Positions 442 to 60,095 of a DNA stretch of 64,000 nt are shown piece after piece. The first letter of the stretch is position 1. Each line of letters starts with the position of its first letter. The notes beneath the pieces are model-generated. The model had not been told where the DNA came from. It did not search any database and saw only the letters and a program-made list of their open reading frames with translations. A program made the translations under genes and the position numbers. Origin of the DNA: a bacterium (GTDB lineage: Bacteria; Patescibacteriota; Patescibacteriia; JACQRZ01); NCBI GenBank assembly GCA_030688365.1, contig JAUYIE010000021.1, positions 9,866 through 73,865 of the forward strand, written 5' to 3'.

Positions 442-789
442 CTAGCTTTTGTGTGGCTTTATATACAGCCACCAATGAAGACCCTTGTAATTTCGATCTC
501 CATATAAGTCAAATTTTTTCTCGACGCCTTTGTCGGGAGACAGACATACGATTCTCTCCAGTATGATAGGTTTATTACTTTCTTCTTCGAGAGTAATAAA
601 CAAAGGGCATTCCTTATGATTGTGGATTGCTTGTTCTATCTTTTTCAACGAATCTAAATGATCGTCGTAGGCGTTTGATAGATGAGCAATGACATTTTTA
701 TTTCTGGATGACATCCAAAATTCAAAAGATTCCTTTACTACGGGAGAGTGTGAAAAAAAAGCCACTAAATTTAAAAGCAACAACGGCAT
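442..789 (-). CDS. Hypothetical protein with an N-terminal signal-like hydrophobic segment.
   Basis: ORF of 115 aa. The N-terminus 'MPLLLLNLVAFFSHSPVV' is hydrophobic. Upstream there is AGGGAG 6 nt before the ATG and a TTGTAG-16-TATAAT promoter-like site at about 812-840 on the minus strand. Confidence 0.5.
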   Translation of the reverse strand: MPLLLLNLVAFFSHSPVVKESFEFWMSSRNKNVIAHLSNAYDDHLDSLKKIEQAIHNHKECPLFITLEEESNKPIILERIVCLSPDKGVEKKFDLYGDRNYKGLHWWLYIKPHKS

Positions 790-926
790 TTTTGTTCTCC
801 CTTTTTAAAATACACGACCATAATAATTATACACCTTCTTTGGTCTACTACAACATGATTTTTTGTCAATAAGTACAATAACAAAACCCCGCATGGTTAC
901 GAGGTTTTGTCTAAAACAGTGGATAA

Positions 927-1091
927 CTAGCAGGTGCAGTTGCTTTCAATTTCCTGACAATTTACGCACTTATTCTCGCACGTACCGCCACAATCGCAAT
1001 GTCGTTCTCCTCCGCAGTCCATGGCGCATTGAGCGCACTGGGTTCCATCTGCGGGACTGCCACATTGGGCACACTTCATTTCTCCTTCCAT
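927..1091 (-). CDS. Small cysteine-rich protein, metallothionein- or zinc-ribbon-like. It is 54 aa from the first ATG (1089-1091) or 50 aa from the internal ATG at 1077-1079.
   Basis: Hand translation of the minus strand gives MEGEMKCAQCGSPADGTQCAQCAMDCGGERHCDCGGTCENKCVNCQEIESNCTC. That is 12 Cys in 54 aa, including CxxC x3, CDC and CTC. The sequence GGAAGGAGAA, a GGAGG-like Shine-Dalgarno, lies immediately 5' of the second ATG. The ORF is under 60 aa and so is absent from the ORF track. Confidence 0.5.
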   Translation of the reverse strand: MEGEMKCAQCGSPADGTQCAQCAMDCGGERHCDCGGTCENKCVNCQEIESNCTC

Positions 1092-1095
1092 AGAA

Positions 1096-1992
1096 GTGAT
1101 GGATTATGTATTATACATCGTTAGTACAATATTGTTATATATGAGTGTGAATCGTACAAAAAAATCTGTCAAATTGTTACCCCGACGTATACGGCAATTT
1201 CAACAGATTATTTGGGATTATTATGAAAAAAATGGTAGACATGATCTTCCGTGGCGTCTTACCGATGATACATATACCATTTTTATTTCAGAAATAATGT
1301 TGCAACAAACGCAAGTACCGCGAGTGTTGATAAAATATCCCGAGTTTTTAGGAGAATTTCCTGATATAAACACACTCGCGCGAGCATCACTTGCAAACAT
1401 CCTCAACGTGTGGCAAGGGATGGGATACAACCGCAGAGCGATTTTTTTAAAAAAAGCGGCACGCGAAATCATTGAGAAGTACGACGGAAACATACCCAAC
1501 AATGTTATTGATCTAGAGAGCTTACCTGGTATCGGCATACACACTGCCGGTGCTATCATGGCTTTTGCGTTTAACGCCCCTGTTGTTTTTATTGAAACCA
1601 ACATACGTCGGACGTTTATTCATCATTTTTTTCAAGAAGATGCTGATGTATCTGATACAGAGATACTTCCGTTGGTGCGTGCGACACTGCCGGTGGATCG
1701 CCCGCGAGATTGGTACAATGCATTGATGGATTATGGCTCGTATGTGGCTAAAAATGTCGCCAATCCCAATCACAAGAGTCGGCATTATAAAAAACAGAGT
1801 TCGTTTGATACGTCCGTGCGTAAAGTGCGAGGTGTGATAATCAACACTCTTACCAGATCAAAGGATGGAATAATATTCAACAAAGAATTGGATGCACTAC
1901 CCTTTGAGCGTGAACGGATTAATATGGCGCTTGCAGGTTTGATGGCCGAAGATTTTTTGAAGAAAAAAAGGAATGGATATGGTATTTCATAA
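1096..1992 (+). CDS. HhH-GPD superfamily DNA glycosylase of the MutY / endonuclease III family. The C-terminal 4Fe-4S cysteine cluster is absent.
   Basis: Motifs 'GRHDLPWR', 'IFISEIMLQQTQV' and 'LPGIGIHTAGAIMAFAF' (HhH-GPD) are present. The C-terminal half has no Cys. The true start may be the ATG at 1141. Confidence 0.7.
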   Translation: MMDYVLYIVSTILLYMSVNRTKKSVKLLPRRIRQFQQIIWDYYEKNGRHDLPWRLTDDTYTIFISEIMLQQTQVPRVLIKYPEFLGEFPDINTLARASLANILNVWQGMGYNRRAIFLKKAAREIIEKYDGNIPNNVIDLESLPGIGIHTAGAIMAFAFNAPVVFIETNIRRTFIHHFFQEDADVSDTEILPLVRATLPVDRPRDWYNALMDYGSYVAKNVANPNHKSRHYKKQSSFDTSVRKVRGVIINTLTRSKDGIIFNKELDALPFERERINMALAGLMAEDFLKKKRNGYGIS

Positions 1993-3043: not shown

Positions 3044-4072
3044 ATGTCGGATATGGAACAACCAAACTCACAAATCGTCATATATAAAGATCAGGATGGA
3101 AACATTAAGATTGATGTTCGTTTTGATGGTGATACCGTGTGGTTGACGCAAAATGCCATGGCAGAGCTTTTTCAGACAACAAAGCAAAATGTCAGTCAGC
3201 ATATCAAAAATATCACAGAAGATGGAGAATTATCAGAAAATTCAACTGTAAAGAATTTCTTTACAGTTCAAAAAGAAGGCGAAAGAGAGGTTGGGCGGGA
3301 TGTGGAATTCTACAATCTAGACCTCATTATCGCTGTTGGGTACCGAGTAAAGTCATCACAAGGCACCGCATTTCGCAGGTGGGCAACGGAACGGCTTTCA
3401 GAGTACATCGTCAAAGGCTTTGTGATAGACAGTGAACGGTTAAAGAATCCTGATCTTCCTTTTGACTATTTTGAGGAGCTTGAACGGACTATCGCGGATA
3501 TTCGTACCAGCGAAAAGAGATTTTATCGCAAAATAACTGATATCTACGCGACGAGTGTAGATTATGACCCCACAAACGATCAAAGTATTCTGTTTTTTCA
3601 AACAGTGCAGAACAAAGTCCATTATGCTGTGACCGGTAGTACCGCAGCAGAAATTGTCGTGGGTAGGATAGACAGTGGTAAAAAGAATCTAGGACTGGAA
3701 TCTTTTAGAGGTACCAAGCCTACAAAAGAAGAAGCCATTATTGCAAAAAATTATTATAACAAGGAAGAGCTAGCACAACTCAATGCACTGGTTGAACAGT
3801 ATTTGATATTCGCAACAGAACAAGCTCGTCGCAGGGTGCCCATGACAATGAATGATTGGGTAGAAAAACTGCATGGATTTTTGACTATCAATGATAGGAA
3901 TATCTTGCATGATGCGGGCAAGATTTCTCACGAATTGATGGTAGAAATTGCTGGGGCGAAATTTGATGAGTATAAGCATATGGAAGCAAGGCAAGATGTT
4001 GATTTTGACGAGGTCGCACTAAAGGCGATTGAGAGTGCAAGAGGGAGAGATATTTCCAAAAAGATTATATGA
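3044..4072 (+). CDS. RhuM-family protein (virulence protein RhuM-like)
   Basis: The core 'NLDLIIAVGYRVKSSQGTAFRRWATERL' is characteristic of the RhuM family (PF13310-like). Confidence 0.65.
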   Translation: MSDMEQPNSQIVIYKDQDGNIKIDVRFDGDTVWLTQNAMAELFQTTKQNVSQHIKNITEDGELSENSTVKNFFTVQKEGEREVGRDVEFYNLDLIIAVGYRVKSSQGTAFRRWATERLSEYIVKGFVIDSERLKNPDLPFDYFEELERTIADIRTSEKRFYRKITDIYATSVDYDPTNDQSILFFQTVQNKVHYAVTGSTAAEIVVGRIDSGKKNLGLESFRGTKPTKEEAIIAKNYYNKEELAQLNALVEQYLIFATEQARRRVPMTMNDWVEKLHGFLTINDRNILHDAGKISHELMVEIAGAKFDEYKHMEARQDVDFDEVALKAIESARGRDISKKII

Positions 4073-4485
4073 AAAAAGGACTTATCGTACATGCGCTTCT
4101 CTACAACCAAAAACACGAGGTGCTTTTGATTCGCAGATCTTTGGTAGACGATGTCTTGCCCGGTATGTGGGATATCCCAGGAGGAACGCTTGAAGACGGA
4201 GAGGATTTACAAAATGGCGCTGTCCGAGAGGTAAAAGAGGAAACGGGCTTAGATATCAAAAATCTTAATTTGTTTCACTACACTTCAAACGTTGACCAGA
4301 CAAAGGATATTGAGTTTATTCGGCTTATTTTTATCGGTCAGTGTGATGATACCGAGATAGTGTTAAATCCAGAGGATCATGATGAATATCGCTGGGTGTC
4401 GTTGGATAAACCACTTGAAGATATTGCGATGGTGGAGTATTTGCCTGATCTTATTCAAATGCTTCAAACAAGGGACATCAATTGA
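4069..4485 (+). CDS. NUDIX hydrolase
   Basis: Nudix box 'GGTLEDGEDLQNGAVREVKEETGL' (Gx5Ex7REVxEExGx). Its start overlaps the RhuM stop (ATGA). Confidence 0.75.
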   Translation: MKKGLIVHALLYNQKHEVLLIRRSLVDDVLPGMWDIPGGTLEDGEDLQNGAVREVKEETGLDIKNLNLFHYTSNVDQTKDIEFIRLIFIGQCDDTEIVLNPEDHDEYRWVSLDKPLEDIAMVEYLPDLIQMLQTRDIN

Positions 4486-4497
4486 TCAGGTATTATC

Positions 4498-5118
4498 CTA
4501 CAAAATAATCACCTCGCCATCTGCAAGCGTTTTAAATGGCATGTTATTTTTTGTCATATATTCAACGGTTTTTTGTGCGCTTTCGGATTCTATATGATCT
4601 GAATTGTAATGCGGGATTATGGAATACGGGAGAATATGTAGACCACCCCAAATAACTTCCAAGTTGTCCCCATAGGGTTTTGCTGTCGGATCATCCATGA
4701 GTTCCATGCCATGTAACGTTGGTGCCAATACACAGATGCCAGCGCTATATCCTCCATACAGCAGATCATCTCTGGTGGCTAATTTTTTTATAATCACATC
4801 AAAACCGCTCATCCTCATCGCTTGTCTCAAGACGAAAATGTTGCCTCCGCGCACCCAGATGACGCCAGATTCAGAAAGTTTTTTTTCTAATTCAGTCGGG
4901 TTATCAAAATAATCGCGTAGATCAACGAGCTCAACATCTAGGCCGAGCGTTGTAAGTTGATTCATATCAGATTGTTCACTGATTTTGCGTCTTTCTAGAC
5001 CATCTGAAAAATCAAGAGCGTTGGGGATATAAGCAGTTTTTTTGTTCACTGCAGACAGCAGTGTTTTCAGCTTTTCAATCTCGTTTCCCAGTTTGTATGA
5101 GGATAGGTAGAGTTTCAT
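4498..5118 (-). CDS. Peptidase family S51 (dipeptidase E / cyanophycinase-like)
   Basis: 'YGGYSAGICVLAPTL' carries a GxSAG nucleophile elbow. 'IWVRGGNIFVLRQAMRMSGF' is typical of S51. Confidence 0.6.
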   Translation of the reverse strand: MKLYLSSYKLGNEIEKLKTLLSAVNKKTAYIPNALDFSDGLERRKISEQSDMNQLTTLGLDVELVDLRDYFDNPTELEKKLSESGVIWVRGGNIFVLRQAMRMSGFDVIIKKLATRDDLLYGGYSAGICVLAPTLHGMELMDDPTAKPYGDNLEVIWGGLHILPYSIIPHYNSDHIESESAQKTVEYMTKNNMPFKTLADGEVIIL

Positions 5119-8701: not shown

Positions 8702-10123
8702 TTATATAGATTGAGGAAGCGTTACCTCGATAGACGCCTCCAATAATTGATCTTTTAATATTTCTTTAGTTATATCACGATAAAAATTGCACATTCGTTC
8801 AATTTTTGTCGTACCGGTAGCTTTTGCAAATTCATGAGTTATTTTGCAGCCTCCACCACAGTGACCTTCAATCATGCATCCCTTGCACATTTCCATAACT
8901 CCAGTGAGATGATCCTCAACCAACTTATAATATGGACTTCCGAACGAATAAAAAGACTGTATTGTAGCAATGTCTCCAATCTGATCCACACTATAGCCAC
9001 AGCTATAGATTTTCCCCGATGGAGCAACGCATATACTATTACCCTCGATCGCACCACAGAATGTCACACGTTTATCAAGCGGAGAGTCACTTAAGTTTTC
9101 TGCAGGACGAGACCAAAATCCAGGAACATCGACCCCTAATCGTTTTCCATATCTACGCATGTTCATTAATTTGGAAATGATCTCATATATAGGAATACTT
9201 ACCATACCTATGACATCTATGTCAATTCTTACATTGGTCATGCCGTGTGTAACTGCCCAATCAATTAGAGACTCATTCAGTTCATGAAAATTGTTTTCCG
9301 TAATCGTTACCGCAATGCCATTGAGTGGATATCCTACTCTTTTTAGGGTTTGAAACCCATCAGTGATCTCACCGTAGGTACCACGCCCTGACTTTGTCAT
9401 TCTGACGCTATCGTTCCCTTTTTGTAACCCATCAAGACTTGACGCAATATCAACATTATATTGCTTCAGGGTTTCGGCAATTTCTTTTGTCATCAGAGAT
9501 GCATTTGTATTTATGGAGAAGTGTATATCAAATGTGCCACTATACGCTTCATCGCAGTATTCAATAATTTGTTTTATTACCTGCCAGTTGAGAAGTGGTT
9601 CACCTCCTCCAAAGTTGATTTCCGCAACATGTTTGTTGTGTATTTTAAGGATATCTAAGTATTTATCCACAGTCTTTTTTGCCAAATGGAATGACATGAA
9701 TTTTTTAGGACTGTTGATTCGATCAGAGATTTCCAGGTTGTTGAAATGTATACAGTAGGTGCAACGAAAGTTGCAGGATTCGCACATAATCAGCTCAAGA
9801 TATTCTACCAGGGATCCATTAGTAATATCTATTTTTCTGCGTTGCATCGTTTCTACAAGTAGTTTTCTCTCATCAAGTGTTTTTGGTTTGAGAAAATAAC
9901 AACGAACCAATTCGTCAATTGCCTCCTGTCCCGCGTTTGTTTCATGTGTGTCATACCACGAAAGAAGTGTTTTTGGTTCCAAAAAATAGTTGAGAAATTC
10001 TAATGTTGCAGAGGAAACAATTTTTGGATATCCAAATAAAGAATGCCAAATTACGAAAACACCATCGTTCTCAATCTGTTGAATGAATGCCGATCTAACT
10101 AATACATTATCGTTGTCTACCAT
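8702..10123 (-). CDS. Radical SAM / SPASM-domain enzyme (peptide-modifying maturase-like, anSME family). It has a ~125-aa N-terminal extension that may be an RRE-like domain.
   Basis: 'CNFRCTYC' (CxxxCxxC) lies at about residue 126. The C-terminal SPASM is 'CGAIEGNSICV...GKIYSC' plus 'CKGCMIEGHCGGGC' (exact Cx2Cx5Cx3C), with a later Cys in 'ERMCNF'. The Shine-Dalgarno AAGGAAAAAA lies upstream of the ATG. Confidence 0.85.
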   Translation of the reverse strand: MVDNDNVLVRSAFIQQIENDGVFVIWHSLFGYPKIVSSATLEFLNYFLEPKTLLSWYDTHETNAGQEAIDELVRCYFLKPKTLDERKLLVETMQRRKIDITNGSLVEYLELIMCESCNFRCTYCIHFNNLEISDRINSPKKFMSFHLAKKTVDKYLDILKIHNKHVAEINFGGGEPLLNWQVIKQIIEYCDEAYSGTFDIHFSINTNASLMTKEIAETLKQYNVDIASSLDGLQKGNDSVRMTKSGRGTYGEITDGFQTLKRVGYPLNGIAVTITENNFHELNESLIDWAVTHGMTNVRIDIDVIGMVSIPIYEIISKLMNMRRYGKRLGVDVPGFWSRPAENLSDSPLDKRVTFCGAIEGNSICVAPSGKIYSCGYSVDQIGDIATIQSFYSFGSPYYKLVEDHLTGVMEMCKGCMIEGHCGGGCKITHEFAKATGTTKIERMCNFYRDITKEILKDQLLEASIEVTLPQSI

Positions 10124-10176
10124 TGTATTTTTTCCTTTCTTTGTTTTTTGTCAATGTCCGATAAGTTGGTATTTAC

Positions 10177-10194
10177 CATATTCTTTGGTATATT
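10177..10194. promoter_or_regulatory. Perfect palindrome CCGTGTA-aata-TACACGG upstream of the rSAM gene. It is a candidate operator.
   Basis: 7-bp inverted repeat with a 4-nt spacer. It sits just upstream of a TTGCAA-17-TAAATA minus-strand promoter-like site. Confidence 0.4.
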
Positions 10195-10404
10195 GCAACC
10201 CGTGTAAATATACACGGTCTGTTGGATACAATTGTAATCGAGGCATAAAAATATAAATATACTGTCTAGTTTGTGGTAGTCAAAAATAGGTCAGGCTTGA
10301 TAATATAATATTATCTCCATATTTTTGGGCGAAAAAAGATGTAAAGTGTGTGGATAACAAATGACCTAATAAGGCGTTTTTCGGTGAAAAACCTTTGTTT
10401 TACA

Positions 10405-19241: not shown

Positions 19242-21086
19242 TTGACAGATTTTTATTATACAATTTTCATGCCAGACATTATACATCACATCCTCAAAAC
19301 ATATTTTGGGTATGATAGCTTTCGTCCGCAACAGGAGGAGATCATCCGCAATGTCTTGGCGGGAAATGATACAGTCGTGTTGATGCCGACCGGTGGAGGA
19401 AAGTCTCTTTGTTTTCAGATTCCCGCCATGGCGCTGGAAGGTATCACATTGGTAGTCTCGCCACTCATCGCTTTGATGAAAGATCAGGTTGATGCGATGA
19501 TCGCAAACGGTATCCCTGCGGTGTTTATCAACAGCAGTCTGTCCGCTCGGGAGATATTTGAGATTCAAGAGGAGCTACAGCGGGGGAAAATAAAACTTCT
19601 TTATATCGCGCCGGAGCGTCTGGCACTTCTTGATTTTCAGGTATTTCTTAAGAGTCTGCCTATCTCACTCATCGCTGTAGATGAAGCGCACTGTATTTCA
19701 GAGTGGGGTCATGAATTTCGTCCTGATTATCGCAACTTACAGCGTTGCAAGCAGGTCTTGTTTCCCCATGTACCCATCATCGCATTGACTGCTACTGCTA
19801 CACTAAAAGTAAAGGAGGATATCATCACACAGCTCCACCTACAGACGCCAAAAGTGTTTCTTGCAAGTTTTGACAGGCCAAATCTGTTTATCCGCGTGAA
19901 GCCAAAACAGCAGGCGTTTAAAGAAATCCTCCTTTTGCTCAAAAAATATACTGATGAAGCGGTCATTATCTACTGTCTTTCGCGAAAAGAGACAGAGACG
20001 CTTGCTGTTGCTCTTAACAAAGAAGGACACAAAGCAACTGCTTACCATGCCGGGATGAGCAGTGATGAACGAAAAAAAGCGCAAGATCGTTTTAAAAAAG
20101 ATCAGGTATCCATCATCGTGGCCACGATCGCCTTTGGGATGGGGATAGATAAACCTGACGTGAGATTGGTGATTCATTACAGTCTACCAAAAAGCATTGA
20201 GGGGTATTATCAGGAGATCGGACGTGCCGGTAGAGACGGTCTTGCAAGTGAATGCGTTCTTTTTTATACCTATGGAGATACGAGGACTCTTGAATATTTC
20301 ATCGGTGCTATGGAAGATGCTGATGAACAAAGGCGAGCACGAGTGAAATTGCAGGAGATAGTTGATTATTGCGAGGCACAGGGGTGTCGAAGGAATATAC
20401 TGTTGCGTTATTTTGGAGAAGTGGGTGAAATGCAAAATTGCGCGAGTTGTGATACCTGTACGACGACAAAAGAGACTTTTGACGGGACAGTCATTGCTCA
20501 AAAGATTCTTTCTGCGGTGATAAAAACAGGGCAAAAGTTTGGCGCGCAACACGTGATTTCCGTACTGCGCGGATCCAAAAATCAAGGCGTGCTTTCGCGC
20601 GGGCATGATAGCCTCTCGGTATATGGCATTGTAAAGGACTATGACGACTCGGCATTACGTCTTTTTATCAAAGAGCTGGCATCAAAGGGCTATTTGTTAA
20701 AAGATGAGATTGATCATAATATTTTTATATTCAAAGTATCGGCAAAAGGCATGGACGCATTGAAACAACGAGCAAGCATTGAGCTTACGAAACCTCCTGT
20801 TGCGATGGCGAAAGGAAAATCGTCATCCTCTGGCAAGGGATCAAGTACACATAGTGATAACGAGCTGTTTCAGGAACTGCGCGCGTTGAGAAGGAAAATT
20901 GCAGAGCAAAGAAATGTACCTCCTTTTGTGATATTCAGTGATAAGTCTCTTTTGGAGATGACAGAGTATTTACCACAAGAGAGGGAACAATTTTCAAAAA
21001 TATTTGGCGTGGGCGCGCAAAAACTTGAGGATTTTGGGCACAAGTTTATGGAAGTGATACGACAGTATGCGGGGAAGAAACTATAG
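19242..21086 (+). CDS. recQ: ATP-dependent DNA helicase RecQ. The start may be the ATG at 19269.
   Basis: 'GYDSFRPQQEEII', Walker A 'MPTGGGKS', DEAH 'IAVDEAHCISEWGHEFRPDY', a zinc-binding Cys cluster, and an HRDC-like C-terminus. Confidence 0.9.
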   Translation: MTDFYYTIFMPDIIHHILKTYFGYDSFRPQQEEIIRNVLAGNDTVVLMPTGGGKSLCFQIPAMALEGITLVVSPLIALMKDQVDAMIANGIPAVFINSSLSAREIFEIQEELQRGKIKLLYIAPERLALLDFQVFLKSLPISLIAVDEAHCISEWGHEFRPDYRNLQRCKQVLFPHVPIIALTATATLKVKEDIITQLHLQTPKVFLASFDRPNLFIRVKPKQQAFKEILLLLKKYTDEAVIIYCLSRKETETLAVALNKEGHKATAYHAGMSSDERKKAQDRFKKDQVSIIVATIAFGMGIDKPDVRLVIHYSLPKSIEGYYQEIGRAGRDGLASECVLFYTYGDTRTLEYFIGAMEDADEQRRARVKLQEIVDYCEAQGCRRNILLRYFGEVGEMQNCASCDTCTTTKETFDGTVIAQKILSAVIKTGQKFGAQHVISVLRGSKNQGVLSRGHDSLSVYGIVKDYDDSALRLFIKELASKGYLLKDEIDHNIFIFKVSAKGMDALKQRASIELTKPPVAMAKGKSSSSGKGSSTHSDNELFQELRALRRKIAEQRNVPPFVIFSDKSLLEMTEYLPQEREQFSKIFGVGAQKLEDFGHKFMEVIRQYAGKKL

Positions 21087-28147: not shown

Positions 28148-28324
28148 ATGAAACGCGCCATTATAAAAACAGAACGCCGTGAGATATTACGACAAAAAAA
28201 GAACCGTGTGGCAGGTGGTGGTTTTAGTGCGCAGGCAAAACGCGAACAGGTAAACAAAGGATACATCGGCCTTGCAAAAGGGGTCAAAAAGAGCATACTG
28301 TCCCGTACGAATGTCCGGGTCTAA
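28148..28324 (+). CDS. Possible small basic protein of 58 aa
   Basis: The frame from ATG 28148 to TAA 28322-28324 translates to MKRAIIKTERREILRQKKNRVAGGGFSAQAKREQVNKGYIGLAKGVKKSILSRTNVRV. It is below the ORF-track threshold and has no clear Shine-Dalgarno site. Confidence 0.25.
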   Translation: MKRAIIKTERREILRQKKNRVAGGGFSAQAKREQVNKGYIGLAKGVKKSILSRTNVRV

Positions 28325-28355
28325 TATTTATATCCTGTGCGTCCCTATTTTGCCT

Positions 28356-30359
28356 ATGAAATTTGAATTGGTTTCTGATTACAAGCCAGCCGGGGATCAG
28401 GGGGAGGCGATTGAAAGAATCGTGAAGGGGTTTGCAAAACATAAAATGCAGACTCTTTTGGGTGTTACCGGATCGGGAAAGACATTTACGATTGCCAATG
28501 CTATCCAAAAATTGCAGGTACCGACCTTGGTGTTGGCGCACAACAAAACACTCGCGGCACAGCTATATAATGAATTCAAAGAATTTTTTCCAAATAACAA
28601 AGTTTGCTATTTTGTTTCTTACTATGATTACTATCAGCCGGAGAGCTATATGCCTCAAACTGATACCTATATTTCCAAAGAAACGCAAGTCAACGAAAAG
28701 ATTGATCAACTCCGCATAGAGGCGACCGCATCGCTCATGTCTCGGCCTGATGTGATTGTCGTGTCGTCTGTGTCGTGTATATATAGTTTGGGTAACCCGA
28801 TTGAGTTCAAGTCGCATATTGCGACGGTGCACAAAGGGCAGACGATCAAACGCAAGGATTTTTTGCAACAAATGACTGATTTGCTGTATCAGCGCAATGA
28901 TATGGATTTAGGGTCGGGGAAGTTTCGTGCGCGCGGTGATACTGTTGATTTTATCCAAGGATTTGGCGGTGATATGTATCGCGTGCAGTTTTTTGGTAAT
29001 GAGATTGAGAAACTTGAAATCATTGAGCCGATTACATTTACGGTGCGTAGTACGCCGGACACGATCAATATCTTTCCCGCGCGCCCGTTTATGGTGCCGG
29101 ATGAAGTGAAAAAAGGGGCGATACAGGGTATTCGCGATGAGCTGACACAAGAAGCGCCACGGCTTGACATTGTAGAACGTCAGCGTCTGGAACAGCGAAC
29201 GAGTTATGATTTGGAAATGATTGAGCAGTTGGGCTTTTGTAAGGGGATTGAAAACTATTCTCGTCATTTTGATAAGCGAAAAGAAGGGGAACCGCCGTTT
29301 ACCCTGTTGGACTTTTTTTCAATGAATCCGTTTTCAAAAGATTTTTTGCTGTGCATTGATGAAAGTCATGTGAGCTTGCCACAAGTGCGCGGTATGTACC
29401 AGGGCGACCGTACACGCAAGCAGACGTTGGTGGATTATGGGTTTCGTTTGCCGTCGGCATTGGACAATCGCCCACTGAAATTTGCAGAATTTGAAAAATA
29501 TATGGGGCATACGGTGTGCGTGAGCGCGACACCCGGGCCGTATGAACTGGGAAAATCAACACAAGTGGTTGAACAGATTGTCCGTCCGACCGGTCTGACT
29601 GATCCGCCTGTGTTTGTACGACCGATAAAAAACCAGATGGCGGATTTGGCTAAAGAGATCAATAAAACGATCAAGATGGGAAATCGTATTTTGATTACGA
29701 CGTTGACTAAGCGGAGTGCGGAAGATCTTACGGAATACTTGATTGAACATGACTTGAAAGCACGATATCTCCATAGTGAGATTGATACCTTGGAACGTAC
29801 AAAGATTTTGAAAGAACTGCGTCTCGGTGTTTTTGATATTTTGGTGGGTATAAACCTGCTTCGTGAAGGTCTGGACTTGCCAGAAGTCGCGTTGGTTGCG
29901 ATATTGGACGCCGACAAAGAAGGTTTCCTCCGTAATGCGACGAGTCTTGTGCAGACTATTGGTCGTGCTGCTCGTAATATTGATGCAAAAGTGATTTTGT
30001 ATGCCGATCGCATGACTGATTCTATGAAGCAGGCCATGGATGAGACGGCGCGTCGTCGTGAGATACAGATTGCGTATAACAAAAAGCACCACATCACACC
30101 CAAGACGATCATCAAGGAAATCAAGGAAGACTTGGTGATAGATGAGATGAAGGTATATATCAAAGCCGAAGATATCGGAAAATACATCGCCCAGCTTGAG
30201 CAGGAACTACAAGAAGCGGTGGAATTACTTAATTTTGAAAAAGCGATTGAACTGCGCGATATGCTTCACAAAATTCGCAAAGAACAGGGCATTCCCAACC
30301 AAGCGGACTACAGTTTGGATGGGATCAAAAAGCGAGGAAAGATGAAGAAAAAGGGGTAG
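28356..30359 (+). CDS. uvrB: Excinuclease ABC subunit B
   Basis: 'KFELVSDYKPAGDQ', Walker A 'GVTGSGKTFT', a helicase C-terminal domain, and a C-terminal UVR domain 'FEKAIELRDMLHKI'. The start is chosen at MKFEL. Confidence 0.9.
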   Translation: MKFELVSDYKPAGDQGEAIERIVKGFAKHKMQTLLGVTGSGKTFTIANAIQKLQVPTLVLAHNKTLAAQLYNEFKEFFPNNKVCYFVSYYDYYQPESYMPQTDTYISKETQVNEKIDQLRIEATASLMSRPDVIVVSSVSCIYSLGNPIEFKSHIATVHKGQTIKRKDFLQQMTDLLYQRNDMDLGSGKFRARGDTVDFIQGFGGDMYRVQFFGNEIEKLEIIEPITFTVRSTPDTINIFPARPFMVPDEVKKGAIQGIRDELTQEAPRLDIVERQRLEQRTSYDLEMIEQLGFCKGIENYSRHFDKRKEGEPPFTLLDFFSMNPFSKDFLLCIDESHVSLPQVRGMYQGDRTRKQTLVDYGFRLPSALDNRPLKFAEFEKYMGHTVCVSATPGPYELGKSTQVVEQIVRPTGLTDPPVFVRPIKNQMADLAKEINKTIKMGNRILITTLTKRSAEDLTEYLIEHDLKARYLHSEIDTLERTKILKELRLGVFDILVGINLLREGLDLPEVALVAILDADKEGFLRNATSLVQTIGRAARNIDAKVILYADRMTDSMKQAMDETARRREIQIAYNKKHHITPKTIIKEIKEDLVIDEMKVYIKAEDIGKYIAQLEQELQEAVELLNFEKAIELRDMLHKIRKEQGIPNQADYSLDGIKKRGKMKKKG

Positions 30360-35765: not shown

Positions 35766-38591
35766 ATGTCCAAAGATCAGGAGTTCATACAAATACGCGG
35801 TGCGCGTCAGCATAACCTCAAAAATATTGACGTTGATATCCCTATCAATTCTTTTACGGTGATTACTGGTTTGTCGGGAAGTGGGAAATCGTCTTTGGCG
35901 TTTGATACGCTCTATGCCGAAGGTCAGCGTCGCTATGTGGAAAGTTTGTCGGCGTACGCACGGCAGTTTTTGGGTATTATGAATAAGCCGGACGTGGATT
36001 CTATCAAAGGTCTTTCACCGGCGATTGCCATAGAACAAAAGAAACTGTCTGCCAATCCGCGATCTACCGTCGGGACAGTCACGGAGATATATGACTACTT
36101 GCGTTTGCTTTATGCGCGTATCGGTATTCCACACTGTTATTCGTGTGGAAAACTGATTCGTAAGCAAGATGCACAAAGTATTTCCAAGTCTATCATCTCG
36201 GATTACAATGGCGCGCAGATCACTATCTTAGCGCCACTCGTGCGGGCGCGTAAAGGAACGTACGAATATCTTTTTGATGATCTCAAACGACAAGGGTTCC
36301 GCCGTGTACGCGTTGATGGGGTGTTTTACAATCTCGGGACGGAAAGTATTATTTTGAAACGTTATGTCGCGCATACTATTGAGGTGGCACTGGATCGACT
36401 GGGTGCAGATAGCGATGAAAAATCGCGCATGCAAGAAGCGGTAGAAAGTGCGTTGAAACTGGGAAATGGATTTATGATTGTGTTGGTAGAGCGTGCAGAG
36501 GCAAAGCACAATGTCGGCGGGAAAAAATATGAGGAAAAAATGTACAGTCAACACTTGGCGTGCATTGATTGCGGACTCAATTTTGAAGAAATGCAACCGC
36601 GCATGTTTTCTTTCAACGCACCCCAAGGAGCATGTCCCGAGTGTCATGGTATCGGTATTATTGAAGAGTTTGAGGAGGAGCTTATCATGCCATTGCCGTC
36701 CCGATCTATCATGGAAGGCGGTATCGCGCCGTGGAGTAAGATCGTGCCCGTACACTGGGACAAGATTGAACGCATGGCAGAATATTACAAGTTTGATCCG
36801 TGGACGCCTCTCAAACAATATTCCCGTGATATCATCAATCTTTTGTTGTGGGGGGATACAGACACAGAAACGGATCGGCATTATGGACATTTTGAGGGTG
36901 TCATTCCGCAACTGAAGCGTATTTACCGTCAGACAGATTCGGAAGCCATGCGTACGGCTATTCGCAAGTACATGCGCGAGACACAGTGCCCTAGTTGTCA
37001 GGGCAACCGTCTGAAAAAAGAAAGCCTCTTTGTATATATTGGTGGAAAAAATATTGTGCAATATACTGAACTGTCTATACGCGAGTGTTTTGACTTTATA
37101 GATACGCTAAAGCTGACGGCTACAGAGAAAAAGATCGCAGAGACAGTAGTAAAAGAAATCAAAGCGCGGTTGTCGTTTCTCAACAATGTCGGTCTTGATT
37201 ATTTGTCGCTTGCGCGTACCACAAAAACGCTTTCCGGTGGAGAATGGCAACGCATTCATCTTGCAACACAGATCGGTTCGGAGTTGCGAGGGGTGATGTA
37301 TATTTTGGATGAACCGTCCATCGGTCTACACCAGCGTGATAACGGCAAACTGATTGATACGCTGAAAGGTCTGCGGGATCTGGGTAATAGTGTGATTGTC
37401 GTGGAACATGATGAAGATACGATGGCTTCGGCCGATCATATCATTGATATTGGTCTAGGTGCGGGCGTACATGGGGGATCGGTGATTGCACAAGGGACAT
37501 TTGAACAAATAAAAAAGAGTAAAAATTCTCTTACAGGGCAATACCTTTCCGGTAAAAAGAAAATAGCGATTCCTGATCATCGCCGACCGGCACGGGGATT
37601 TTTAACGATAAAAAACGCGCATGGACACAATCTAAAAAATATTGATGTCAAGATTCCTCTTAGTGTGTTTTGCTGTATTACGGGCGTCTCGGGAAGCGGG
37701 AAAAGTACTCTTATCAACGAAACACTCTATCCCGCGCTTTCAAAATATTTTGGGGAGACGGTGGATGCTCCCGCCAAGCACGATCGTATAGAAGGGCTTG
37801 ATCAGCTTGATAAGGTCATCACGATTGATCAGTCGCCAATCGGACGTACTCCGCGTTCCAATCCCGCCACCTACACCGGCGTCTTTACCTATATCCGCGA
37901 ACTGTTTGCCGCCACCAAAGAAGCACGCGTGCGAGGGTATCGTGATGGACGTTTTAGTTTTAATGTCTCTGACGGTCGATGTGGCAACTGTGAAGGAGAT
38001 GGAGTTATTAAGATAGAAATGCATTTTTTGCCTGATGTATACATTCCCTGCGAGGTTTGTGGAGGGAAGCGTTACAATGATGAAACTTTGTCGGTGAAAT
38101 ACAAAGACAAAACGATCGCAGATGTGTTGGACATGACGGTGGAAGAAGCGCTGGATTTTTTCCGACCAGTGCCGAGGATAAAAAACAAAATGCAGACACT
38201 CTATGATGTCGGTTTGAGCTATATCAAGCTGGGACAGTCATCAACCACCCTTTCCGGTGGTGAAGCACAACGAGTGAAACTTGCTACCGAACTCGCAAAA
38301 CGTGATACAGGCAGGACGATGTATCATCTGGACGAACCGACGACCGGTCTTCATTTTGACGATATTCAAAAACTTCTTACCGTACTCAATCGTCTGGTGG
38401 AGAAAGGAAACTCCGTCATTGTCATTGAACACAACCTTGATGTCATAAAAACCGCTGATTATATCATTGATCTTGGTCCCGAAGGCGGACAAGCAGGGGG
38501 GAATATTATCGCTGTCGGCAAACCCGAAGAAGTGGTTAAAATAAAGGAGAGTTATACAGGGCATTTTTTGAAAAAGGTACTGAAGAAGTAA
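35766..38591 (+). CDS. uvrA: Excinuclease ABC subunit A
   Basis: Two ABC modules (Walker A '[14 protein letters not shown]' and '[14 protein letters not shown]', signature 'LSGGEWQR' and 'LSGGEAQR') and zinc fingers CxxC. It is 941 aa. Confidence 0.92.
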
Positions 38592-38657
38592 ATAGGAACC
38601 GTATATCTAGCATTTCTTTTGTTATAAGGACAAAACTCGTTCATGGAAGGCCAATTC

Positions 38658-38686
38658 TTGACGTTATCCACAGGGCGTGCTATACT
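38658..38686 (+). promoter_or_regulatory. Sigma70-like promoter TTGACG-17-TATACT driving the RRM gene through a ~100-nt leader
   Basis: TTGACG at 38658-63, a 17-nt spacer, and TATACT at 38681-86. Confidence 0.45.
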
Positions 38687-38792
38687 AAGTGTTAAATACA
38701 TTAGTTCGCAAGGTGCAAATCTTTAAGTTTGTACCCTCCGCGAAGCAACAGTCGACTCAATGTAGGTGAAGAATTTAGTTTTAGTTTATACT

Positions 38793-39134
38793 ATGGCAAA
38801 AAAATTATACGTTGGAGGTATCAACTTCTCAACGACAGACGAAGCACTTCGTGAAGCTTTTTCACAAGCCGGTACCGTAGAGTCCGCAACGATCATCATG
38901 GATCGTGATAGCGGTCGCTCAAAAGGTTTCGGTTTCGTAGAAATGGCAAGCGATGAGCAAGCTACCGCAGCTATTGAAATGTTCAATGGCAAGGAGCTCG
39001 ACGGCCGACGCCTTACTGTAAGCGAAGCACGCCCAATGGGTGAACGCCCAGCTCGCAGTGGAGGCAACAGTTTTGGCGGTGGTCGCAATAGCGGTGGTCG
39101 TGGTAACGATTACGGCTCACGCAACCAGTGGTAA
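38793..39134 (+). CDS. RRM-type RNA-binding protein with a Gly-rich C-terminal tail
   Basis: RNP-2 'LYVGGI' and RNP-1 'KGFGFVEM'. The tail 'GGNSFGGGRNSGGRGNDYG' is Gly-rich. The start is taken at MAKKLY (38793). Confidence 0.8.
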   Translation: MAKKLYVGGINFSTTDEALREAFSQAGTVESATIIMDRDSGRSKGFGFVEMASDEQATAAIEMFNGKELDGRRLTVSEARPMGERPARSGGNSFGGGRNSGGRGNDYGSRNQW

Positions 39135-39239
39135 TTCGTTGATTTCGACAGAGGCACCCTGTCCGCCAGTAGGCGGAGGGGGTGTTTTTGTATACGTTGG
39201 CGCGCTATACTGATTTTATCCCAAAGGGATACCCTAGAT

Positions 39240-40799
39240 ATGAAACCATTTTTAAAACAACCCATTCCCACACAGCCCGGTTGTTATTTAATGAAAGATA
39301 AAGACAGTACAGTGTTATATGTGGGAAAAGCGAAAAACCTGCAAAAGCGGGTAGCTTCATATTGGCGCGCGACTGACGAAAAGACCGTCGCGTTGGTATC
39401 CGAAATATCTGACATTGAGTTTATTATCACTGGCAATGAGGTGGAGGCGTTGATTTTGGAAGCGCAACTTATAAAAAAATATCATCCGCATTATAATATT
39501 GACCTCAAGGACGGTCAGCGATATGCGTTTTTGAAACTCACAAAAGAAGAATATCCTCGTCTGCAAGTCGCTCGCGCGGTGAAAAATGATGGCAAATATT
39601 TTGGCCCGTTTCCTTCAGGAGGTGCTCGAACGGCGGCCATGAACGCGGCGAACAAGATTTTTGGCCTCTGTAAATACCGTGGGCTCAAAAAGCCGTGCTT
39701 GCGGTATCATCTCGGATATTGTCGTGGTGCATGTGCGGGCCTGATTTCAAAAGAAGAATACGGCGAGATCATCAAAGATGTTGAACGCTTTTTTAATGGC
39801 GAATATGCAATATTGATCAAGAAAATACACGAGCAAATGGCAGATGCATCAAAAGCAGAGCAGTTTGAAAAAGCAAAAATGTATCGAGATCAACTTCTTA
39901 ATCTTGAAAAGCTTCAAGATCAGAGTGTTTCACGACCAAAGTCGTATGATCAAGATGTGGTAAATTATGTTGTGATGGGTGCAAGTATGATTGTGCAGTT
40001 GTTTCACTTCGATAAAGGGATTATTTCTGGACGCAAAGAATATACTTTTGATTTGGATACGTTGATAGTGCAAACACCTCAAGACGCACTGGGTAGTTTT
40101 TTACGACAGTATTATGCGAGTCACAATGTACCGCAAGAGATTGTTGTACCTGATGTATTGCCTGAACAAAAAATCATTGAAGCATTTTTGGTTCATATCG
40201 CCGGACGCAAAGTCGTATTGACGGTACCGACACGAGGTTTGAAGAAAAAACTACTTGCAATGGTGAAAGAAAATTTGACAGTTGGTTTGGGGCAAGGCGG
40301 TGGGCAATTGTATGAACTCAAAACCGCGTTGAAACTGGATATACTACCAAAGACCATCAATTGTGTTGATATTTCACATTTGGGCGGAACAGAGATGGTC
40401 GGTTCGTTGGTACAGTTTCATAATGGCGCGTCAGCGAAGGGGCAATATAGGAAATTTATTATAAAGCATGGCAAAGGGAATAATGACTTTGCGTCTATGG
40501 AGGAAGTGTTGACGCGTTACTTGGAACGCATGAAAGAAAAGAAAGAAACACTGCCAGATCTATTTGTCGTGGATGGGGGACGAGGACAACTTAATATTGC
40601 TATACGCGTATTCGGTGTGCACGGGATAGATATCCCATTGATCGGTCTTGCGAAACGACTTGAAGAAATATATGTCTCATGGGCGAAATTGCCATTGCGT
40701 TTACCGCCAAAAAGCCCTGCACTTCAGTTACTCCGCGCTCTCCGTGACGAAGCGCACCGATTCGCGATTACATTTCAGAGGAAGAGGAGGAGAGCTTAG
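39240..40799 (+). CDS. uvrC: Excinuclease ABC subunit C, short form of 519 aa
   Basis: GIY-YIG 'GCYLMKDKDSTVLYVGKAKNLQKRVASY', a UVR domain 'FEKAKMYRDQLLNLEKL', and a RNase H-like endonuclease domain. Confidence 0.85.
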   Translation: MKPFLKQPIPTQPGCYLMKDKDSTVLYVGKAKNLQKRVASYWRATDEKTVALVSEISDIEFIITGNEVEALILEAQLIKKYHPHYNIDLKDGQRYAFLKLTKEEYPRLQVARAVKNDGKYFGPFPSGGARTAAMNAANKIFGLCKYRGLKKPCLRYHLGYCRGACAGLISKEEYGEIIKDVERFFNGEYAILIKKIHEQMADASKAEQFEKAKMYRDQLLNLEKLQDQSVSRPKSYDQDVVNYVVMGASMIVQLFHFDKGIISGRKEYTFDLDTLIVQTPQDALGSFLRQYYASHNVPQEIVVPDVLPEQKIIEAFLVHIAGRKVVLTVPTRGLKKKLLAMVKENLTVGLGQGGGQLYELKTALKLDILPKTINCVDISHLGGTEMVGSLVQFHNGASAKGQYRKFIIKHGKGNNDFASMEEVLTRYLERMKEKKETLPDLFVVDGGRGQLNIAIRVFGVHGIDIPLIGLAKRLEEIYVSWAKLPLRLPPKSPALQLLRALRDEAHRFAITFQRKRRRA

Positions 40800-47390: not shown

Positions 47391-50300
47391 ATGCGTACTT
47401 CCTATACTGTGGACAAGATGAAAAATAATGATGACAGACATTTTTCTGCATTCAAAGCGGACATACGACACTTGTATGTTTTGTTTGTTTTTATGATTCT
47501 TACTTTGGGTGTCGGAGTTTTTTTGTTGACACAGAGTAGGAGTGGAGATAGTTTGGCAGCTAGTACAATTGTAGATTCAGGAATTCAGGCTGGTCAGTAT
47601 ACATCAATAGCTATGGCTGCTGATGGCTACGCTCGAATTAGTTATTATCAGCAGAATGGTGGTGATCTTAAATTTGCTCAATGTACGAATGCAGATTGTA
47701 GCACAAACAATCTTACGGTTGTTGATTCTACTGGCGATGTTGGTGAATATACGTCTCTCGCTATGGCCGATGACGGATTTGCGCGTATTAGTTACTATGA
47801 TGAGACAAATACTGATATTAAATTCGTACAATGTACAAATGACGCATGTTCGACAAGTGTTATTACAACAATTGATTCTATGGGTGATGTCGGGAAAGAT
47901 ACAGCAATAACAATGGCCGATGACGGATTTGCGCGTATTAGTTACTATGATGAGACAAATACTGATATTAAATTCGTACAATGTACAAATGACGCATGTT
48001 CGACAAACGTTATTACTACGGTGGCTACGAACTCCCTTGGCTATGGTACCGATATCGCTATGGCCTCTGATGGGTATGCTAGGATCACCCACTATGCAAC
48101 TTCAATATATTCATATTTGCAGTTTATTCAATGTACAAATGCGGATTGTTCGACGAAAAATAGCACAAATATCTATCCCGCAGCTCCGGGGAGTGGGGGA
48201 ATTGGTAGTTCTGTTGCGATGGCAGACGACGGATACGCCCGTATTACATATCACGATGATTCAGCGGGTGGATCCGTAAAATTTGTTCAATGCACTAATG
48301 ACGCATGTTCAACAAACGTTCTTACTGATGTGGAAGCTCAATCCTATTCACCCTCTGCTCAAACATCACTTGCGATGGCAGACGACGGATACGCTCGGAT
48401 TGCTTATCTTGATACTGATAATGTTGATGTCAAATTTGTGCAATGCACGAATGATGCATGTTCCACAAATACTATATCCACTGTTGATAGTACTGGATCT
48501 GTAGGATGGTGGCCGTCTCTTGCTTTGGGTAGCGATGGATTTGCGAGGATTAGTTATTATGACTCGTCAAATACTGATCTCAAATTTTTCCAATGTGTTG
48601 ATGCTGCCTGTTCAAATGCTGCGCCAACAGCTTCTTCTGTCACTATCACTGGTACTGCTGAGGTTGATCAGCTACTCACAGGTAATTATACTTATGCTGA
48701 CACTGATGGTGACAGTGAAGGTACATCCACATTTCGGTGGCTTCGCGATGATGTGGCGATTGATGGTGCAACATCTTCTACATATACAACAGTAGAAGCT
48801 GATGGAGGTACGACTATAAAATTTGAAGTCACTCCTGTCGCCGCTACAGGTACATCTCCCGGCATTGCCGTTGAAAGCGTTGGAACCGCGATTACTGCGA
48901 ATAGCGCTCCCACCGCCCCCACCACACTGTATTCAAATACTGCTATCACCACGGCTCAAGCAGGTAGCGCCAATCCTACGACACTTGTAAATAATGATAT
49001 TGTGGTATCAGCCATTAACAATGACCCAGACGCTGATGCCGCTGATAAGTATGAAGTACAGGTTGCTACCGATAATGTATTTGCGAGCATTGTATATGAT
49101 TCCGGTAGTTCAGGTACTAGTATGACATCCACGGCGGACGGCGCTCGTTCACCTGATATTGGTATTCCTGTATCAATCACCGCTGGTACGACTTATTATT
49201 GGCGAATCAAATTTTGGGATACAAACTCTGCAGAGGGGGCATGGTCTCCATCAGCAGAAAGTGCTGCAACATTTCAAACAAATGCATCTCTCGCAACAGC
49301 TTTGACTACAATAGATAGCACAGGGACAGTAGGGCAATATACTTCCACAGTTGTTGCTTCTGATGGTTTTTCGCGTATTGCGTACTACGATACAACCAAT
49401 ACCGACCTCAAGTTTGCTCAATGTATTGATTCCACGTGTACCTCACCTGTTATAACGTCAGTAGATAGCACTGGTTCAGTCGGTCAATACACCTCTATTG
49501 CTATGGCATCTGATGGATTTGCGAGAATTAGTTATTATGACCAAACTAATGCTTCTCTCAAATTTGCTCAATGTACTAATGCTGCATGTTCCACAAGCGT
49601 TATTACTACAGTAGATAATACTGCTACTTCTGCAGGTACTTTTACATCGATTGTCATGGCATCTGATGGATTTCCTCGTATAGGGTACTATAGTTATATT
49701 GCTGGTGGTAAATTTGACCCGTCGTATTATCAGCTCAAGTTTGCTAAATGCGAGAACGCATCATGTTCGTCAAAAACTCTTTCGGTTGTAGATTCTTCTG
49801 GATCCCTCCAGGTTGGTCAATATGCTTCTCTCTCAATGTCTGCATCTGATGGATTTCCGCGTTTTTCCTATTATGATACGACTAACACCAGTCTCAAATT
49901 TGCTCAATGTACGGATGCCACATGCACTGCACCAGTACTAACTACGGTAGACAGTACTGACACTGTTGGATTATATACATCACTTACCATGGCTTCTGAC
50001 GGCTTTGCACGGATCAGTTATTATGATGCAACAAATAGGGATTTGAAGTTTGCACAATGTACGGATGCCGCCTGTACAAGTCCCGTACTAACAACCGTAG
50101 ACAGTACAGGCATTGTTGGTACATATACATCTTTAAAAATGGCATCCGATGGCTTTGCACGTATTGCGTATTATGATACAACTAACACTAATTTGAAGTT
50201 TGTAAAATGTACTGATGCTCCGTGTACTTCGGGAAGTGCGACGTTTACTTCTGTCGCGAGTGATGGGTCTGTGGGCACCTATGCATCTCTTGCGTTGACT

Positions 50301-59506: not shown

Positions 59507-60013
59507 ATGGGAGACAAGCTGATGATTTTTAGTCGCACATTAAAAACAAAAAAAGTAACAAAAAAGTACGTGATTCGGTATCAATGTTTTGACGATAGAC
59601 TGTGTGAGATCACAGAGGATTTCGTGGTTAGACATGAAGGTGTTGAATCTTGCAAAGAACTTCCCTGCGCTGGGGGTGTGAAAGAGATTGCAGTACCGAC
59701 ACATCAAAGTGTTCAGGATTTTATTTTGTGTCATTTTAGAATCGTAATAAATGGCATAAGAAAGAAAGACCCAGATGCGGAGATCATCGTCTATCTATTT
59801 AATCATACGGATTGTCATTATTATAGGAATCACCCAAATTATGCTGTGTTTGAAACCTATGAAGAAGAGATAGAGACACATATACAGCATCTGTTCATAG
59901 CAGCCGAGATAGTCACTCTGACATTTAATGTCAGGGTTGTGCCAGTCTTGGTAAGACTTGAAGACAGTGTTGAATTTGAAGTTATTGCAATACCTGAGTT
60001 TGCGTACGTGTAG
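59507..60013 (+). CDS. Hypothetical protein, a possible distant paralog of the preceding gene with 'CFDDR' and 'NHTDCH' motifs
   Basis: C27-x-D-D-R and H100-x-x-C103 are present. Confidence 0.35.
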   Translation: MGDKLMIFSRTLKTKKVTKKYVIRYQCFDDRLCEITEDFVVRHEGVESCKELPCAGGVKEIAVPTHQSVQDFILCHFRIVINGIRKKDPDAEIIVYLFNHTDCHYYRNHPNYAVFETYEEEIETHIQHLFIAAEIVTLTFNVRVVPVLVRLEDSVEFEVIAIPEFAYV

Positions 60014-60095
60014 CAAAAGTATTTTTCGAGTCACCATCATGAAAAAACCTAGGTGGGCTCTTTTTTTTTACCCGCGTGAGTGCTACAGTATCGCT

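Follow-up and report, generated by a model that had tools for sequence, protein, structure and literature searches.

Does a short, cysteine-dense open reading frame (ORF) on a Patescibacteria contig encode a protein and, if so, of what kind? The frame lies on the minus strand at 927..1091 of a 64,000-nucleotide stretch of assembly GCA_030688365.1 (contig JAUYIE010000021.1, positions 9,866 to 73,865), hereafter the window. It runs from an ATG (1091..1089) to a TAG (927..929), as placed by the ORF list and by syntenic orthologues, and translates as MEGEMKCAQCGSPADGTQCAQCAMDCGGERHCDCGGTCENKCVNCQEIESNCTC, a product of 54 codons with 12 Cys (22%) at spacings of [2,8,2,3,5,1,3,3,2,6,1]; the length, Cys count and spacing reported in an initial annotation, made from the DNA letters alone, were exact. 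The core idea of that annotation, an unannotated Cys-rich and probably metal-binding small protein, also stands on the sequence comparisons described below, while its details of start codon and Shine–Dalgarno site fail.

Cys density by itself was suggestive rather than decisive. One hundred first-order Markov simulations of the window yielded no ORF of 45-70 aa with as many as 12 Cys; the highest count, 11, was seen once. The claim that such a frame is very unlikely by chance in an AT-rich genome therefore held for the simulations, but the window is only moderately AT-rich (GC content 41.8%) and contains a second 12-Cys ORF (49251..49421(-), 56 aa), which lies antisense within a 1281-aa Ig-domain (AIR9/ZirU-like) gene at 47391..51236(+). 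This second ORF is almost certainly an off-frame by-product, and it shows that Cys-dense ORFs arise without being genes; the real evidence is conservation.

Because direct homology searches with the peptide were empty, orthologues were sought through its divergent neighbour, a DNA glycosylase gene. We fetched the contigs of the three closest relatives of the glycosylase (P0002-P0004, 60-63% identity), and each carries a collinear ORF of 49-56 aa with 10-12 Cys in the same divergent position: MEEEMKCAGCNTTEGGKCAGCNGDCGDEKQCGPDNVGENKCENCKEGESTCKC in L004 (4825..4986(-)), MEEQMKCENCQCGTEGPKCGNCKGDCADTKQCNEDGMGDEMDGKDRTDEGNSCKCC in L005/L006 (3682..3852(-)) and MEDEKKCVECKCSAEDATCTNKGEQCCKDEEMSEKKCEDCNEKDDGCKC in L003 (1792..1941(-)). 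BLASTP with composition adjustment aligned the window peptide over its full length to those of L004 (E 8e-13) and L003 (E 8e-5). The Cys frame is thus conserved in all three relatives.

When the orthologous segment was translated in six frames and pairwise BLOSUM62 scores were summed, the Cys frame reached 631 and the other five 211-396. The lowest score, 211, belonged to the plus-strand frame of ORF 863..1093, which the initial annotation had named as a competitor; it stays free of stops in the four genomes only because codons for Leu and Ser that would read as antisense stops are absent from the peptide gene, and it is ruled out as the translated frame. In the codon alignment, pN (the proportion of differences at non-synonymous sites) was 0.29-0.44 and pS (that at synonymous sites) 0.61-0.92, and the codons of invariant residues wobble between TGT and TGC for Cys and between AAG and AAA for Lys. 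As synonymous sites have reached saturation and the protein has nonetheless been preserved, conservation acts at the protein rather than the RNA level; an Rfam search of the region matched no family. Non-Cys residues (M1, E2, K6 and E47) are retained among the orthologues as well. With a conserved frame, an excess of synonymous change and expression signals of its own, 927..1091(-) is, with very little doubt, a genuine gene that codes for protein in the Cys frame and evolves there under purifying selection.

These expression signals frame the gene tightly. A promoter scan found a sigma-70-like promoter, ATAACA-17-TATAAT, at 1138..1110(-), in agreement with the extended -10 element noted earlier (TGTATAAT at 1117..1110 of the minus strand). 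The -10 box TATAAT (1115..1110) is part of a conserved 13-mer, TATAATACATAAT (1103..1115(-)), which ends 11 nt upstream of the start codon; it is identical in L003 and L004, has a single mismatch in L005, and lies at the same distance from the ATG in each. Between the 13-mer and the ATG is a pyrimidine-rich leader without a Shine–Dalgarno site (ccatcacttct, 1092..1102(-)), and an 11-nt pyrimidine-rich stretch precedes the first ATG in all four orthologues. At the other end, a terminator scan placed an intrinsic terminator with a 14-bp hairpin and a U-tract (880..911(-); RNA fold -19.0 kcal/mol) 15 nt past the stop codon. Each of the three orthologues is followed by an equivalent AAAACCCCG...CGGGGUUUUG hairpin, so that the form AAAACC(C)CG-loop-CGGGGUUUUG recurs in all four loci, at most about 25 nt from the stop. 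With the promoter at 1138..1110(-) and the hairpin at 911..880(-), the ORF spans the whole space from promoter to terminator.

Translation is best placed at the first ATG (1091), behind a short leader lacking a Shine–Dalgarno site, as is usual for the source genome. The N-terminus is conserved from this codon onwards (M-E-[EGD]-[EQ]-[MK]-K-C), while Met5, the internal ATG preferred in the initial annotation, is replaced by Lys in L003. The 'GGAGG' taken there for a Shine–Dalgarno site consists of the Glu/Gly codons GAA-GGA-GAA and is not conserved (the relatives carry GAAGAAGAA, GAAGAACAA and GAAGATGAG at this place), and GGAG or GAGG motifs precede only 3 of the 49 candidate gene starts in the window. 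An internal start is ruled out on these grounds. Many ATGs of the window lie 5-20 nt past TATAAT- or TATACT-like hexamers, which suggests that the source organism normally makes mRNAs with a short leader or none.

Why had such a gene gone unrecorded? The description of it as unannotated was borne out: neither the 54-aa product nor the 50-aa product is present in a collection of 15 billion proteins, which does hold the adjacent gene of the contig (NCBI MDP2656641.1), and the Logan copy of the contig has no gene call in the gap. No call covers the peptide in the window contig or in L003. For L004, two independent gene-calling runs (4737..4934(-) and the equivalent ENA contig) picked a non-conserved 65-aa frame over the Cys-rich gene. 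A correct annotation exists in one genome of the four, GCA_964357385.1, labelled 'Patescibacteria group bacterium', in which the L005 peptide is the 'hypothetical protein' MEK7103672.1 (P0121). A conserved small gene with its own promoter and terminator has thus been missed or mis-framed by standard gene callers in three of four genomes and, having been skipped or wrongly framed, it is invisible to protein-database searches.

A word-index search of 5.8 billion proteins returned no homologue of the peptide, phmmer found 0 matches among 1.84 billion representative proteins, and neither the single sequences nor a four-sequence profile matched Pfam, NCBIfam or PHROGs at E<=10; a search of the PDB with the same profile and threshold was also empty, so that the profile searches proposed in the initial annotation point to no known family. 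In the 5.8-billion collection, a profile search brought up the L005 orthologue and nothing else. A DNA-pattern scan of 185,579 species genomes gave a single match, in Planomonospora, which we reject as a chance, off-frame stretch in a high-GC gene. Peptide-profile scans of JGI metagenomes and viral contigs found nothing, and when every stop-to-stop segment of the fetched loci and the window (432 kb) was searched with a hidden Markov model built from the four peptides, the four orthologues came up and no paralogue. No such ORF accompanies the glycosylase in 80 JGI metagenome loci with an enzyme of the same subfamily (46-58% identity) or in two further Logan-assembly loci (L087 and L088). As far as can be seen, the family is confined to one small Patescibacteria clade, in four genomes, and by sequence comparison it is a new, narrowly distributed family outside every described one.

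What, then, might the protein do? The four peptides (49-56 aa, 5.5-6.1 kDa) contain 10-12 Cys (18-22%) in CxxC, CxC, CxxxC and CC motifs that extend from residue 7 to the last residue. They are acidic (pI 4.25-4.43; 9-16 Asp and Glu against 3-9 Lys and Arg; net charge -6 to -7), are devoid of Phe, Trp, Tyr and Leu, and have only 2-4 aliphatic or Met residues; the window peptide has one His and the other three none. No hydrophobic N-terminus, and no signal or leader peptide, was found in any of the four, which argues for a cytoplasmic location. Ungapped inspection of the Cys positions placed Cys 7, 10, 19 and 26 and the C-terminal CxC in all four peptides; a MAFFT alignment instead gave C7, C10, C19, C32, C52 and C54 as invariant. 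Elsewhere the cysteines turn over: C22 is lost in L003 and C42xxC45 in L005, C12 is gained in both L003 and L005, and C34 and C38 are unique to the window peptide. In the L005 orthologue, two Cys-rich ends flank a Cys-free linker of 20 residues. Overall, the number of thiols is kept more than their positions.

The interpretation we favour, giving it a roughly even chance on composition only, is that the peptide is a lineage-restricted, cytoplasmic, metallothionein-like metal-thiolate protein. All four peptides are smaller than 10 kDa, have a Cys content within the ~15-30% expected of metallothioneins, arranged in CxC, CxxC or CC, and show the expected scarcity of aromatic residues, with no Phe, Trp or Tyr in any. 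A constant number of Cys at drifting positions is typical of cluster-forming metallothioneins and not of fixed four-ligand zinc fingers, and together with the missing hydrophobic core it favours a cluster protein over a Zn(Cys)4 finger. An AlphaFold2 model was without fold or secondary structure (pLDDT 45), which would fit metal-dependent folding but is weak evidence because the alignment held only 2 sequences. The initial proposal of a metallothionein- or zinc-ribbon-like peptide thus survives as regards composition and cytoplasmic location, but not as membership of any known metallothionein, rubredoxin or zinc-ribbon family at E<=10.

In molecular terms, the gene is a stand-alone, monocistronic unit with its own -10 box, a leader of ~5-12 nt without a Shine–Dalgarno site, the 54-codon ORF and the intrinsic terminator, and its product an acidic cytoplasmic protein of 5.6 kDa. 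This protein would be disordered without metal, and its 10-12 Cys thiolates most likely enclose a small metal-thiolate cluster. By analogy with the M3Cys9 and M4Cys11 domains of metallothioneins and with Zn4 SmtA, each chain might carry ~3-4 Zn(II) or Cd(II), or more Cu(I). The role would be that of a metallothionein-like metal buffer or detoxifier that also serves as a thiol sink for reactive oxygen species.

Several observations weigh against this interpretation. Metal binding has no homology link behind it, since no metallothionein family of Pfam and no PDB chain was matched at E<=10; the peptides carry a strong net negative charge; and no gene for a metal sensor, efflux pump or chaperone is a conserved neighbour, nor were metal-homeostasis genes recognised among the window genes scanned. 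With the gene in four genomes only, the statistics of Cys positions are thin. Finally, the two N-terminal CxxC pairs, 7-8 residues apart, might just as well make up one structural Zn(Cys)4 knuckle pair.

The one constant companion of the gene is the glycosylase encoded divergently at 1141..1992(+). It matches Pfam HhH-GPD and, at 177 bits and below the cutoff, NCBIfam mutY; the protein (P0001) is identical to NCBI MDP2656641.1 and contains 0 Cys. Its best PDB match is 8uuc (E 2.5e-61). We equate this entry, the link being unconfirmed, with the structure of cluster-less MutYX published in 2025 (PMC12631127). By these similarities, the glycosylase is an adenine DNA glycosylase of the cluster-less MutYX type, acting in the repair of 8-oxoguanine:A pairs. 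The start-to-start gap between the two genes is 49, 50, 49 and 50 nt in the four genomes, whose other neighbours of the pair differ. We rejected the idea that the peptide supplies Fe-S or Cys ligands in trans: the 80 JGI loci, L087 and L088 have the enzyme without the peptide, and among the top 40 of 120 retrieved glycosylase homologues each has 0-3 Cys. As most glycosylase loci do without it and the closest homologues are also poor in Cys, the peptide is not a general substitute for a lost Fe-S cluster. For a metallothionein-like protein, the back-to-back pairing with MutYX hints that the two may be deployed together under oxidative or metal stress.

Short inverted repeats lie between the divergent starts, close to the -35 position of the peptide promoter and immediately before the glycosylase ATG. 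They differ from genome to genome (ACAATATTGT at 1126..1135 of the window, AAGGTTT-atac-AAACCTT in L004, AAAGGC-ttttacc-GCCTTT in L005; weak or absent in L003) and may represent an operator or a 5' untranslated region hairpin.

The same pairing lends some weight to a structural role for zinc: the micro-protein would bind it at one or two Zn(Cys)4 sites, of the zinc-ribbon or the cross-brace type, and would work through contacts with protein or DNA, for instance as a partner, a regulator or an acidic DNA-mimic inhibitor of MutYX, and not as a metal store. C7xxC10 and C19xxC22, together with the C-terminal CxxC...CxC, could make two tetrahedral sites, and the link to mutYX is strictly conserved, down to its 49-50 nt spacer, in genomes with otherwise different surrounding genes. 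The acidic surface implied by 9-16 Asp and Glu resembles that of DNA-mimic proteins, of which Ugi, acting on uracil-DNA glycosylase, is an example, and a RING-type domain (E 0.11) is among the weak, non-significant PDB similarities of the single sequences. However, the putative ligand sets vary among the orthologues (L003 is without C22 and L005 without C42xxC45), there are no hydrophobic core residues at all, and the PDB profile search was empty. Two strict CxxC knuckles combined with a profile match, as a rubredoxin or zinc ribbon would have, were not found, and Pfam, NCBIfam and PDB offered no match. MutYX-like glycosylases also occur in hundreds of loci without the peptide, including the 80 JGI loci, L087 and L088, so the enzyme is not in need of it. 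We regard a structural zinc protein as plausible but rather unlikely.

A more specific form of partnership appears to us improbable: the peptide might be a dedicated redox and metal partner of the oxidative-damage ('GO') repair module, sharing a 49-50-nt bidirectional control region with MutYX. In one version it would be a sacrificial thiol and metal buffer, keeping Fenton chemistry at DNA in check; in the other, it would modulate MutYX in the manner of a redox-sensitive zinc switch or a DNA mimic. The premise is our assumption that reduced Patescibacteria lack glutathione-type thiols. If true, a metallothionein-like peptide and base-excision repair would be paired in a way not described before.

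The initial annotation had also considered a bacteriocin or other ribosomally synthesized and post-translationally modified peptide (RiPP), and the window does contain a candidate enzyme. A radical S-adenosylmethionine (SAM)/SPASM maturase-like gene (8702..10123(-)) has as its best NCBIfam matches the PapB ranthipeptide maturase (E 1.6e-39), the CcpM 'Cys-rich peptide' maturase, HxsB and the SCIFF maturase, and it could in principle install the Cys-to-Asp/Glu thioethers of a ranthipeptide on a peptide that is rich in Cys and Asp/Glu alike and is encoded by the only plausible small Cys-rich gene within the 64 kb. The matches are nevertheless far below the family cutoffs (for example 136 against 340), and the two genes are 7.6 kb apart, with 11 unrelated genes in mixed orientation between them. 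In two relatives the surroundings of the peptide gene are free of radical SAM genes to a distance of ~10 kb, and tblastn found no match to the enzyme in any fetched locus; these loci hold neither an adjacent or co-conserved maturase nor a leader and core matched by a precursor model such as TIGR03973, and no NCBIfam precursor family, SCIFF included, was hit at E<=10. Within the peptide, the first Cys is residue 7 and Cys occupy the whole length, which leaves no room for a leader or recognition sequence, and a transporter or protease partner and a secretion signal are missing. The maturase-like gene also has a co-directional ORF of its own directly upstream: the 31-aa MPRLQLYPTDRVYLHGLQYTKEYGKYQLIGH (10151..10246(-)), with YTK and YGK motifs and no Cys, ends 27 nt before it, and 8702..10123 and 10151..10246 could together form a small RiPP locus. 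We consider a RiPP precursor weakly founded and distinctly improbable.

A little less probable still is a redox function based on iron, in which the small protein would bind Fe at an Fe(Cys)4 site like that of rubredoxin or desulforedoxin, or would serve as a mini Fe-S cluster carrier. The CxxC pairs and the high Cys content would suit such a protein, as would the apparent origin of the organisms, to judge from names such as 'Hain_H41' and 'Patescibacteria group bacterium', in groundwater Patescibacteria, which we assume to be anaerobic and commonly equipped with small Fe proteins. The peptides, however, match no rubredoxin, ferredoxin or HiPIP family at E<=10, they lack the aromatic residues and CPxCG knuckles typical of rubredoxins as well as the CxxCxxCxxxCP motif of ferredoxins, and their ligand positions drift among orthologues.

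Least probable is a non-functional product. The ORF would then be either a leader rich in Cys codons, with the terminator at 880..911 serving to attenuate the next gene on the same strand, or a frame open by chance within a conserved non-coding RNA. The succession of ORF, terminator and same-strand gene (442..789(-), from the ORF list) has the anatomy of an attenuator, but the genes that follow in the four genomes are not orthologues of one another (16-18% identity) and are not cysteine-metabolism genes, the one in the window is preceded by a separate promoter-like site (847..820(-)), and the retention of M1, E2, K6 and E47, the saturated synonymous sites beside a preserved protein and the empty Rfam search are at odds with conservation of an RNA. 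The same low identity rules out the downstream gene as a conserved partner.

Beyond this locus, the window is unusually dense in genes for DNA repair and related functions, with RhuM-family, NUDIX, RecQ, UvrB, UvrA, UvrC and UvrD-PD-(D/E)XK helicase-nuclease products; the repair-related genes lie at 3044..4485, 19242..21086, 28272..30359, 35766..40799 and 59958..63059.

If metal binding by the metallothionein-like protein is confirmed, it would be the first such protein described in the Candidate Phyla Radiation; in a full-text search of the searchable library, 'metallothionein' and 'Candidate Phyla Radiation' did not occur together in any paper. Its fixed pairing with MutYX provides a testable hypothesis that links metal or thiol buffering to the repair of oxidative DNA damage. 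The general importance is modest, since the family is so far present in four metagenome-derived genomes.

Comparison with characterized systems places the peptide among several families and within none. Ranthipeptide and SCIFF precursors (TIGR03973; PapA/freyrasin) are likewise Cys-rich and ~45-50 aa long, PapA cores mix Cys with Asp, and a PapB/SCIFF-maturase-like gene is present in the window; unlike them, the peptide lacks a leader, has no NCBIfam match at E<=10 and has a maturase that is neither adjacent nor co-conserved. The zinc-finger micro-proteins of haloarchaea (CPxCG) and zinc ribbons share its size (50-60 aa), its CxxC pairs and a possible Zn(Cys)4 site (C7xxC10...C19xxC22). In these families the four ligands are strictly kept around a small hydrophobic core, whereas the ligand pairs of the peptide are lost or moved in two of the four orthologues, and a core is missing.

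MymT, the copper metallothionein of Mycobacterium tuberculosis, is also a lineage-restricted, Cys-rich bacterial protein of ~50 aa and was reportedly overlooked by annotation in the same way, but no search revealed similarity between it and the peptide. The sequence motif of MymT is itself unlike those of other bacterial metallothioneins (PMC10612145).

The BmtA/SmtA proteins (PF02069; Synechococcus SmtA, Pseudomonas PflQ2MT) resemble the peptide in being cytoplasmic, Cys-rich and ~55 aa long, in being encoded by a single gene with its own promoter and in the several Zn or Cd that a thiolate cluster would presumably hold, although none of the four peptides matches PF02069 at E<=10. The smtA gene is paired with that of the metal sensor SmtB, whereas the divergent partner here encodes a DNA glycosylase. 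In SmtA-type proteins, His is among the ligands, hydrophobic residues are present and the fold is that of a GATA-type zinc finger (PMC10612145), in contrast to the near absence of His, the lack of aromatic residues and the lack of a predicted fold in our peptides.

Eukaryotic metallothioneins (vertebrate MT1/2, plant types 1-4) show no detectable homology to the peptide, which is far more acidic, is of bacterial (Patescibacteria) origin and has 10-12 Cys as opposed to the 20 of the vertebrate proteins. They nevertheless share with it a Cys content of ~20% in CxC, CxxC and CC motifs, the lack of aromatic residues, the paucity of hydrophobic ones and a disordered apo-form, and the two Cys-rich ends of the L005 orthologue around its 20-residue linker recall the plant proteins. 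Judged by sequence, the composition of the peptide is closer to that of animal and plant metallothioneins than to the SmtA type, and confirmed metal binding would make it a new sequence family of bacterial metallothioneins with this eukaryote-like composition.

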